Virus record (IMG/VR): IMGVR_UViG_2939521961_000003
DNA from: a virus
Lineage: Duplodnaviria > Heunggongvirae > Uroviricota > Caudoviricetes
DNA length: 50,213 nt
Direction: 5' to 3' (one strand)
In this document: piece after piece, positions 12,001 to 15,000 of the stretch
Numbering within the stretch: the first letter of the stretch is position 1
Layout of the letters: each line of letters begins with the position of its first letter
Program-made: the position numbers

Positions 12001-15000
12001 GTTAGATATTTTCACCAAATCACGACTCCGCATCAAAGTAATCGCAGACGTTCCAGACTCCCGCCGCCGCGACCTAGATAACATCCTGAAGGGTTTACTC
12101 GACTCCCTTATCCATGCCGGATTTGCGGAAGACGACGAGCAATTCGATGACATTCGCGTAATTCGTGGTGTGAAAGTACCAGGCGGACGGCTTGGAATAA
12201 AAATCACCGAACTGGAGAACGCATGAACGCCACAATTCAAACGATACCAGAGCTTCTTATCCAGACACGAGGCAATCAGACCGAAGTGGCGAGGATGCTT
12301 TCCTGCGCAAGAGGAACAGTGCTCAAGTACAACCGAGACAGCAAAGGCGAGCGTCATGTAATAGTTAACGGCGTCCTGATGGTCAAACAGGGCAAGAGGG
12401 GAAGACGATGAGACTCGAAAGCGTAGCTAAATTTCATTCGCCAAAAAGCCCGATGATGAGCGACTCACTACTGGCCACAGTTTATTGGTTTTCGTAACTG
12501 AGTCATTTTATTATTTTATTGCAACTTTTAATCTTTTATAGTGCGAAATAAATGGAGCTGGCATTCATTTCGCACTTTATGTTTTTGTTGGACTTATGTT
12601 ATTTTGATTGAATTCAATTCAGTTAAAAAAAGAAGGTGATTGCTCCATTTATAAATGAATAGTCATCCCCTGTCTTGAATTCTGATGTTACTTTATTAAA
12701 TGCTAGTGTGAAGGCTACAGGTGCATACCCAATTGTTGCGCCAACTTGATATTCATCAACAGTTTTGTTTAGCGATACTGTTGTTTGTTTCGTCTGTATT
12801 GTTTTTCCTTCGAGAGTATAGTTGCGATTGACATCTCGTCTTTCCATACCTGCAAAAATCTTGTATTTGAATCCGCTTGTATCGGACATATGCATTAAAC
12901 CACGGGGAGCCAGCAGACCAAAGCCATTATCCGAATTGAAGGTTTTATCATTACCAATGGCAATGGTTGCGCCATATGCTACATATTGAAATAAGTTTCC
13001 AGTAACAGCAGAAACTTCAGGGTATAATCCAACATTAGCACCTAAAATATCCATACTTGGTGTCATGGATAGCATCCCTTTTACAGTATAACCGTAGCGA
13101 TTCTCTATTTGATCATCCCATGCATGATATTTTTCTGCCCCAATAATCTCATGAGCTTTATTTTGTACTTTCTGACCGCCTGCGTCGGGGCCAACAACAC
13201 CTATGTCAGTACCTAATCGATAGCGAATCCAGTCATTCGCAAGGGAGTTCCATTCAATACCAGTGTGAGTGTATGCACTAAAAGCTCTGTCTCCAGTTAC
13301 AGCTGTGTTGTGTCTTTTATTACTGCCTGATGGAGAGTAAATATCTTGCGCAATATGGAGAGATAATTGGCTCGAGTCTGAGATATCGTGGCTATATCCC
13401 AGAAATAAGCCTTGTGAGTAATCATCTCTGTTTTCATGTTTATTGCCATAAATATCATTAAGTATTGGTTGAAACTTCCCTGCATCATCATTTGCTAATG
13501 ATAATGCAAGGCTGTTCGCGATAGCTGAACACGTGGTAAATGACAGAGCAATAAAGACGCCAGCGATGACACTTTTTTTCATATGTTATTGTCTTCCTTT
13601 TTTTTGAATGGTGCGCGTATTTTACATACATGAGTTTGTAATACAAGGTGCGTAATCAATATGATGTTTTATAATTGCGTGAGACAATTGATTTATTCGT
13701 TTTTTATTGCGGTTTTTATTATCTTTTAATGTAACGGTGTTTTTATTAAGTGTGTTTGCGTGGTGTTTTATGTTTTTTATAATTTTTATTTTGTTAAATT
13801 TAAAAGCATTAGTAATGGCTATTCTATATAGCAATATAAGAACTGTTACAAAAAAAGGGGGGGCAATTACAGGTAGTTATGGATGATGAGTGAAACAGAT
13901 ATTGGAGAACCGGGGAATGAATGATGTCTGAGTCTTATATATCAGAACTCCTTCGCTGTCGCTGGGGGCTCCTGTGCTTATGTCGTTTCCCCGATTCGGT
14001 TTTGAACGATTACCGAATGTTGAAGAATTATGCCAAAATATAGAAAGGATTTACTGCATGAATACCCAATATTTACAGTATGTTCGTGAGCAACTTATGG
14101 CAGCTACTGCTGACTTGAACGGAGCAACGAAAGGCCAGCTCGAAGCCTGGCAGGAGCATGCACAATTTGATACTGGTACATACAAACGAAAGAAGCCGCG
14201 CATTCTGGATGTGGTAACTGGCAAGATGATTACGCTGGATAATACGCCGACTTCCGGTAAGCAGTCGTACGCAAAAGGTTCATCCATTGCTTTGGTCAGC
14301 CCGGTTGAATTCTCAACCTCTTCATGGCGCCGCGCGGTTTTGTCTCTCGATGAACATCAGAAAGCATGGTTGCTTTGGTGTTACAGCGAAAGCGTTCGAT
14401 GGGGGCATCAGGTCACCATAACGCAATGGGCATGGAGCGAGTTTAAAGATTTGTTAAGTAACAGAAAAATTGCAGGTAAGACACTGGATCGCCTGAAGAC
14501 GTTAATCTGGCTGGCTGCACAGGATGTGAAGAGCGAACTTGCAGGGCGTGAGGCCTATGAATACCAGACACTGGCATCATTGGTGGGAGTGACAACAAAA
14601 AACTGGTCCGAGACATTTACTGAACGCTGGGTTGCAATGAAGCACATTTTTCTACAGCTTGATAGTGATGCTTTATTGCTTGTGACGAGAACACGTTCAA
14701 AACAAAAGGCAGCATTTTTACAGCAAAATATTGCAAAACTGGATTAAAAGCCATATACTTCATGCAAATTTGGTATGTTGTAAAAAATGTATAAACCCGC
14801 TGCCGAGTGGGTTTTTTTTATGCCCTGAGTTGTACTTGTACGGTAAACATGCTGGCTGCTATGTAATAGAGTTTTTTTAGCCTGTAACCTCTTGACGGCA
14901 TTGAATTGCTTTTGTTATGAGTTGTAAGCCAATGTTATCATCTTGTATTGGGGTGGTTATGAAGGATGGTGCGCTGCTCAGGAGTTCTTCACTTTTTATT

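Follow-up and report, generated by a model that had tools for sequence, protein, structure and literature searches.

LpxR, a lipid A 3'-O-deacylase, is encoded in Salmonella by a chromosomal gene that is not prophage-borne. The Salmonella enzyme removes the 3'-acyloxyacyl group of lipid A in a Ca2+-dependent reaction (according to the section of PMC4651636 that cites Reynolds 2006), and its gene is repressed by MicF (PMC4651636). In Escherichia coli O157:H7 Sakai, the gene ECs_0814 (Z0955 in strain EDL933) lies on prophage Sp3 (CP-933K) and is annotated as lpxR, 'lipid A 3'-O-deacylase'. Deacylase activity and lower phagocytosis have been published for it (passage of PMC6393859 citing Ogawa 2018), an lpxR mutant elicited stronger TLR4-dependent NF-kB and p38 responses (as given in the relevant part of PMC6863877), and the protein has been put forward as an antigen for vaccines (PMC6863877). 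Its expression needs both Pch and Ler (PMC6393859, in the lines summarising Ogawa 2018), Ler activates Z0955/ECs0814 about 5-fold (PMC3891560), and lpxR is a member of the LEE modulon (LEE, locus of enterocyte effacement; PMC9263587). Here we analysed a 50,213-nucleotide stretch of DNA from a virus of the Caudoviricetes (IMG/VR record IMGVR_UViG_2939521961_000003; hereafter the window), in which an lpxR gene lies on an AT-rich island between ninH and Q. We conclude with high confidence that it is a lysogenic-conversion gene whose 1.43-kb low-GC island is set in the late-regulatory region of a lambdoid prophage that has decayed. The feature itself is already known, the identical gene having been characterised in O157:H7 Sakai, and the window adds no new biology on LpxR because all of it has been published for that gene. 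What is added here are the limits of the island (~12479-13907), fixed borders at a Q remnant and at ylcG, corrected gene starts and a gap in the PHROGs annotation.

A six-frame list of open reading frames (ORFs) contained a single long ORF in the span 12412-13973, for which a sequence-only reading had proposed a reverse-oriented gene for a 319-residue outer-membrane barrel with a signal peptide and a C-terminal ITFFF, possibly of the LpxR type. The ORF was found as described: it starts with ATG, runs antiparallel to the plus-strand nin/Q operon and encodes a precursor that begins MKKSVIAG and terminates NGAITFFF. The coding sequence (CDS) and its principal parts are as follows.

12623 to 13582, minus strand: lpxR CDS, 319 amino acids, lipid A 3'-O-deacylase precursor (Pfam, 3FID, PHROG 2309, RefSeq WP_000750155.1, identity to Sakai ECs_0814).
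13517 to 13582, minus strand: codons of the predicted signal peptide, residues 1-22, cut after A-I-A (sequence features and a 22-residue offset to 3FID).
13487 to 13492, minus strand: codons N31-D32 (mature N9-D10), part of the active site and Ca2+ site (residue list in PMC6863877, where it cites Rutten 2009).
13151 to 13153, minus strand: codon H144 (mature H122), with Q140 and E150 close by (same residue list in PMC6863877).

A protein profile search matched the product to the Pfam family PF09982 (LpxR) with E=6.8e-40 and 137.4 bits (cutoff 26); residues 10-318 cover profile positions 2-320 of 323, which is essentially the full length. A sequence search of the PDB returned only one match, the crystal structure of Salmonella LpxR (3FID; E=3.6e-153), and residues 24-319 align with residues 2-296 of the 3FID chain with 220/296 identities (74%) and a single one-residue indel. 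The Salmonella Typhimurium protein has the same length of 319 residues (PMC6863877) and the same C-terminal ITFFF. The RefSeq entry WP_000750155.1 is labelled 'lipid A deacylase LpxR family protein', and PHROG 2309 matches the protein end to end (E=3e-230). The LpxR-type identity, put forward as a question by the sequence-only reading, is thus borne out by the full-length profile match and by the identity to 3FID. As a side observation, PHROGs v4 still labels phrog_2309 'unknown function' though the family is LpxR.

The catalytic and Ca2+ residues published for Salmonella LpxR are N9, D10, T/S34, Q118, H122 and E128 in mature numbering (list in PMC6863877, where it cites Rutten 2009). All six are retained here as N31, D32, S56, Q140, H144 and E150, with the Salmonella Thr at mature position 34 replaced by Ser; K89 and Y152 are likewise present. 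The gene in the window is an intact, full-length member of the LpxR family that keeps its catalytic and Ca2+ residues. Early annotations described ECs0814/Z0955 as 'systemic factor protein A-like' (PMC2323221, PMC3891560), a label under which the product would be an SfpA-like porin or systemic factor and not an enzyme. We give this practically no credence: the 74% identity to a crystallised deacylase and the retention of the catalytic His and of the Asn-Asp, Gln and Glu contradict the porin label, and the current RefSeq and Sakai annotations of the gene read LpxR.

The N-terminus, MKKSVIAGVFIALSFTTCSAIA followed by N, contains two lysines, a hydrophobic core (residues 4-22 have a mean Kyte-Doolittle value of 1.9) and an A-x-A site, features that fit a Sec signal peptide; a SignalP 'SPI' call has been published for Z0955 (PMC12962677). 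Since the numbering offset to mature 3FID is 22, the mature protein would begin directly after A-I-A, at residue 23. At the other end, the terminal FFF resembles the C-terminal aromatic beta-signal of outer-membrane barrels, and the end-to-end alignment with 3FID predicts a 12-stranded outer-membrane beta-barrel.

GC content is ~50% over the nin genes and only 28-39% within 12480-13920, and the island (~12479-13907, 1.43 kb) has 35.8% GC against 50.5% for the whole window. On the plus strand it is preceded by ybcO (11577-11867), rusA (11864-12226) and ninH (12223-12411) and followed by Q, all supported by Pfam. The island and the elements at its borders are listed below.

12408 to 12479, plus strand: 5' remnant of a lambda-type Q gene, 24 codons (RefSeq pseudogene, phage 434 annotation, PHROG Q-like match to residues 1-24).
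12479 to 13907, no strand assigned: lpxR island, made up of the 3' flank, lpxR and the AT-rich 5' flank (GC content, co-occurrence of the flanks, homology limits).
13924 to 14043, plus strand: ylcG, 39 amino acids, right neighbour of the island, outside the AT-rich tract (RefSeq WP_077249715.1, phage 434 CPT_434_66, PHROG 2705).
14058 to 14747, plus strand: antiterminator Q of the phage-82/DLP12 type, 229 amino acids (RefSeq and phage 434 annotation; Pfam Phage_antiter_Q, E=1.7e-91; PHROG 304).

The placement of a moron between ninH and Q, as originally proposed, is right in outline, with the amendment that a Q remnant and ylcG also lie within the span. The segment 12412-12479 is no plain spacer and belongs to this remnant: the ORF at 12408-12479 keeps the first 20 residues of a lambda-type Q (MRLESVAKFHSPKSPMMSDS), and it is labelled as a pseudogene, 'antitermination protein, missing C-terminus', in RefSeq and as 'antiterminator-like protein, N-terminal fragment' in phage 434. 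Likewise, Q does not start right after 13973; the GTG at 13974 is an over-extension, and the true start is at 14058 in both RefSeq and phage 434.

The Q remnant forms the left island junction and is co-inherited with lpxR in every locus. Homology to phages with a lambda-type ninH-Q arrangement (HK97, HK022, HK620 and others), in which the two genes are contiguous, stops at ~12475-12478, and lpxR-less phages with a contiguous rusA-ylcG-Q order, such as phage 82, start aligning at 13907-13912. We placed the limits of the island at ~12479-13907 because the left homology ends and the right homology begins there. It thus consists of extra DNA of deviant GC content between genes that are adjacent in related phages, which is one mark of a phage moron, along with a promoter and a terminator of its own. 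Among complete E. coli genomes, the 620 that bear lpxR, and no others, have both flanks (12480-12622 and 13590-13915), once each; the island is passed on as a single unit. In 55 lpxR loci from IMG/VR, the common core always begins at 12398 and reaches at least 14048; outside it, the loci join varied nin genes on the left and varied Q and late regions on the right. These varied surroundings are the usual lambdoid mosaicism, in which the Q remnant and ylcG act as recombination borders.

A prophage of E. coli O26:H11 strain 11368 that adjoins ybhB/bioA shows 99.9-100% identity to the window. Comparison with Sakai revealed 0 differences in the 960-nucleotide lpxR CDS and 99.7% identity to Sp3 across 12398-15000 (Q remnant, lpxR, ylcG and Q; 2604 bases align, with five mismatches and three gaps), with the same chromosomal site, beside ybhC/bioA, and the same orientation of lpxR. 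The prophage is the counterpart of Sakai Sp3 and EDL933 CP-933K in enterohaemorrhagic E. coli (EHEC) of the O26:H11 type. The two differ in their left backbone, which is ybcO-rusA-ninH here and recombination endonuclease-pphA in Sakai, and in cargo and insertion sequence (IS) content; O157 genomes are ~98.8% identical to the window in the AT-rich 5' flank, which amounts to few substitutions. In complete E. coli genomes, lpxR is present in 622 of 5426, normally as a single copy and with a CDS at least 99% identical to that of the window in 620; the serotypes include O157:H7, O55:H7, O26, O103, O111, O121 and O145. Previous work found the gene kept in all tested O157, O26, O111 and O103 EHEC (PMC2323221) and strongly associated with LEE (PMC6724679).

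The same module occurs in phage 434, whose DNA is 99.1% identical over 12397-14100, has the same order of Q remnant, lpxR, ylcG and a Q82-like gene, and annotates the lpxR product (CPT_434_65) as 'outer membrane beta-barrel lipid A deacylase'. Phage 434 is fully functional, comes from sewage and was isolated on non-pathogenic E. coli, and other lambdoid outer-membrane morons are comparably placed, for example Lom at 38690-39289, circumstances that would suit a barrel serving the phage itself, through superinfection exclusion, vesiculation or a change in lysis, with the immune effect secondary. The acyl chains of lipid A lie buried and do not normally serve as a determinant of phage receptors, which counts against such a role. 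The literature searched contains no experimental hint of it, and among bacterial genomes lpxR tracks LEE and is co-regulated with it (PMC6724679, PMC9263587). We consider the phage-serving explanation very improbable and retain the assignment as a lysogenic-conversion gene.

The 5' flank of lpxR was analysed for composition and regulatory sites.

13583 to 13907, minus strand: AT-rich regulatory region 5' of lpxR, on which H-NS (silencing) and Ler/Pch (activation) presumably act (28.6% GC; literature on Z0955/ECs0814).

Its GC content is within the lowest 0.1% of all 325-nucleotide stretches of the window, and it holds 7 A/T runs of at least 5, corresponding to 21.5/kb as compared with 3.8/kb window-wide, a 5.6-fold difference. 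The AT-rich flank with T/A tracts described from sequence alone accordingly stands as the most AT-rich 325 nucleotides of the window (the window minimum starts at 13573), but it ends near 13907 and not at 13970. A Shine-Dalgarno-like GGAAG precedes lpxR at 13593-13597, and a consensus scan gave one promoter-like site on the lpxR strand, at 13849-13821. Ler is known to counteract silencing by H-NS (PMC3488262), and control of the 5' flank by H-NS and Ler fits both its composition and the published Ler dependence of the gene. Control by Ler and Pch is specific to LEE-positive E. coli, unlike Salmonella LpxR.

Based on the literature on the identical gene and the sequence features described above, the following course of events can be proposed. 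H-NS would silence the AT-rich lpxR promoter and Ler would relieve this silencing, such that lpxR would be transcribed from its own AT-rich promoter region and switched on together with LEE by Ler and Pch. The precursor would be exported by Sec via the signal peptide of residues 1-22 and inserted by BAM as a 12-stranded barrel via its C-terminal aromatic signal. The Ca2+-dependent enzyme would then hydrolyse the 3'-acyloxyacyl ester of lipid A, with the loss of two fatty acids, as reported for the identical gene and for the Salmonella enzyme, and the under-acylated lipid A, being a weaker TLR4 agonist, would lead to less NF-kB and p38 signalling, to less phagocytosis during attachment and to a milder inflammatory response to EHEC. 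LpxR is a true virulence-associated function of lysogenic conversion, which connects the cargo of a prophage with the LEE regulon and makes EHEC less recognisable to TLR4.

Several results weigh against this picture. Across 12200-14200, promoter and terminator consensus sites were no commoner than in shuffled sequences, and the high-affinity H-NS motif TCGATAAATT was not enriched, with 49 matches against 45 expected, which is uninformative as to binding. AlphaFold2 run on the single sequence, with no multiple sequence alignment, gave no usable model (predicted local distance difference test, pLDDT, of 28.7) and was thus uninformative as to the proposed barrel, which stands on the end-to-end 3FID alignment; we regard this failure as immaterial, the fold being settled by the 74% identity to a protein of solved structure. 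Finally, one study found lpxR strongly down-regulated in adherent versus planktonic Shiga toxin-producing E. coli (STEC; PMC7649339).

The last point would also suit a genuine lpxR that is silent or latent cargo of a decayed prophage and contributes nothing to lipid A or to the interaction with the host. The Salmonella enzyme is reportedly latent in the membrane under standard growth, and the prophage is heavily degraded, with the immunity region deleted, O frameshifted and four IS elements present. However, the ORF, flanks and catalytic residues of lpxR have been kept perfectly while neighbouring phage genes decayed, the CDS is conserved at 99% identity or more in 620 genomes of many serotypes, and the identical Sakai gene has a lipid A and innate-immunity phenotype (in the parts of PMC6863877 and PMC6393859 that deal with it). 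Given how well the gene has been kept while its surroundings decayed, and given the phenotype known for its identical counterpart, we consider silent cargo quite unlikely and favour a lysogenic-conversion gene.

The promoter region is the most variable part of the lpxR unit, because in L056 and L057, two diverged variants, substitutions in the 5' flank amount to 13-16%, with indels in addition, far beyond the 1-4% seen in the CDS and the 3' flank. Across complete E. coli genomes, copies of at least 99% identity number 254/620 for the 5' flank versus 620/620 for the CDS. This divergence may reflect regulatory diversification. The 5' flank diverges in L056 and L057 to the same degree as their Q genes, and we considered whether it belongs to the ylcG-Q module; this assignment was rejected, since the flank is restricted to lpxR-bearing genomes and absent from lpxR-less ylcG-Q phages and hence belongs to lpxR. 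Pairing with MicF, the repressor of the Salmonella gene, received no support beyond chance for lpxR in the window: only a 9-nucleotide perfect complement (AAUGAUGAU) was found, over codons N31-D32-D33, the predicted duplex of -13.3 kcal/mol was no better than those of shuffled sequences (mean -12.5), and perfect matches of at least 10 nucleotides occurred in 11.5% of shuffles. The NDD codons of this complement are also kept in two homologues of 72% nucleotide identity, a retention explained by coding and AT-rich codon use.

A hairpin had also been noted on the 3' side of the gene.

12541 to 12577, no strand assigned: 15-bp inverted repeat, terminator-like, 46 nucleotides downstream of the lpxR stop codon (folding against shuffles; U-tract 12578-12591 on the plus strand only).

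The folding was confirmed: RNA of the minus strand reaches -19.1 kcal/mol (z=-7.4) and RNA of the plus strand -16.4 kcal/mol (z=-3.1), and 0/200 shuffles folded as well on either strand. As to polarity, a U-rich tail, TTTATGTTTTTGTT, comes after the hairpin solely in the plus orientation; in the lpxR orientation ATAAAAGATT comes next, and the tail there, ATAAAAGATTAAAAG, is devoid of a U-tract. The consensus terminator scan did not pick up the hairpin. It is conserved among divergent loci, the sole variant being loop position 12560. Because of the U-rich tail on the plus strand, the hairpin may be no worse at stopping nin-side transcripts than at ending the lpxR message. The possibility that it forms the 3' end of a known small RNA was rejected, as an Rfam search of 12200-15000 was empty across the island and returned only a weak STnc240 match after Q. 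Within the 3' flank, the tandem 8-nucleotide unit ATTTTATT (12505-12520) is present in two copies here versus one in phage 434, a trivial copy-number difference.

This arrangement raises the question of whether the island also forms a barrier to transcription that separates the nin region from Q. Transcripts from pR would cross the hairpin with its plus-facing U-tract and then a convergently transcribed block of 1.4 kb, presumably coated by H-NS, before reaching ylcG-Q; in that case expression of lpxR would exclude activation of the late genes and vice versa, and the island would contribute to the quiescence of the prophage. Phage 434 is intact and inducible, so its pR transcripts must cross lpxR in antisense direction to reach Q. 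In the prophage of the window, a truncated sieB adjoins a truncated cII near 5605-5619, and N, cI, cro and pR are missing. The deletion of pR bears on the barrier idea, and the loss of these four elements leaves lpxR here free of convergent early transcription. A barrier role of the lpxR island is undescribed in the literature examined, and we think it unlikely.

More distant LpxR genes (71-73% amino acid identity) encode full-length Pfam LpxR proteins with the NDD motif and occupy other contexts. A scan of genome contigs with single-protein patterns recovered only one relative, from Citrobacter: in Citrobacter sp. ANG330 (L005), a chromosomal lpxR of 73% amino acid identity is placed just upstream of phoPQ, with purB on its other side. 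In the IMG/VR contigs L059 and L060, an lpxR of 71% amino acid identity is located past the tail-fibre genes of a different prophage and adjoins IS fragments. An 83%-identical lpxR (L062) is found on the 101-kb E. coli plasmid pJNE23-001_1 (NZ_AP045065.1, 48957-49916) amid IS remnants and near a gene for an M91 zinc metallopeptidase. None of these genes shares the flanks seen in the window.

The prophage is defective over 1-28000. The O gene is frameshifted, and the region carries an IS600 (2548-3704) and an IS3-family element (9219-10432) in which an ALIL frameshift pseudoknot spans 10035-10151; ISEc22 (25644-27979) takes the place of most head genes. Further cargo comprises the Lom/Ail barrel (38690-39289), the type III secretion system effector genes nleH (40945-41826) and cif (42050-42877), a gene for a DUF1076 protein (46523-47098) and, on the minus strand, espJ (47997-48650); these virulence cargo genes have an ISCro1 element (43847-46462) among them.

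Directly 3' of Q, a second low-GC block (14932-15919, plus strand, 32-39% GC) encodes a 247-residue membrane protein, which matches PHROG 1521 (unknown function) but no Pfam family, as well as a DUF3927/TciB-like protein of 52 residues; the block is kept in phage 434 and in Sakai Sp3. Beyond it, at 15930-16134 on the plus strand, a full-length match to STnc100 (RF02076) was obtained below the gathering threshold (41.4 bits versus 47; E=6.9e-7). A strong intrinsic terminator (16105-16123 plus T8) closes this stretch, and a frameshifted esterase gene (16218-18082) lies directly downstream; RefSeq shows only an opposite-strand pseudo-CDS (16000-16241) at this site. An Hfq-bound small RNA, PasD, with a structure reported as STnc100-related, has been linked to Q and LpxR (bioRxiv 10.64898/2026.05.13.724894), and 15930-16134 is the place given for PasD, outside the lpxR island. 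Finally, a promoter-like site on the plus strand (14731-14759) is followed by a terminator at 14793-14814, directly after Q, with which the weak STnc240 match overlaps (E=0.22); the phage 434 record also has a terminator in the corresponding position, and 14731-14823 probably corresponds to the short pR'/qut/tR' leader transcript of a phage-82-type antiterminator.

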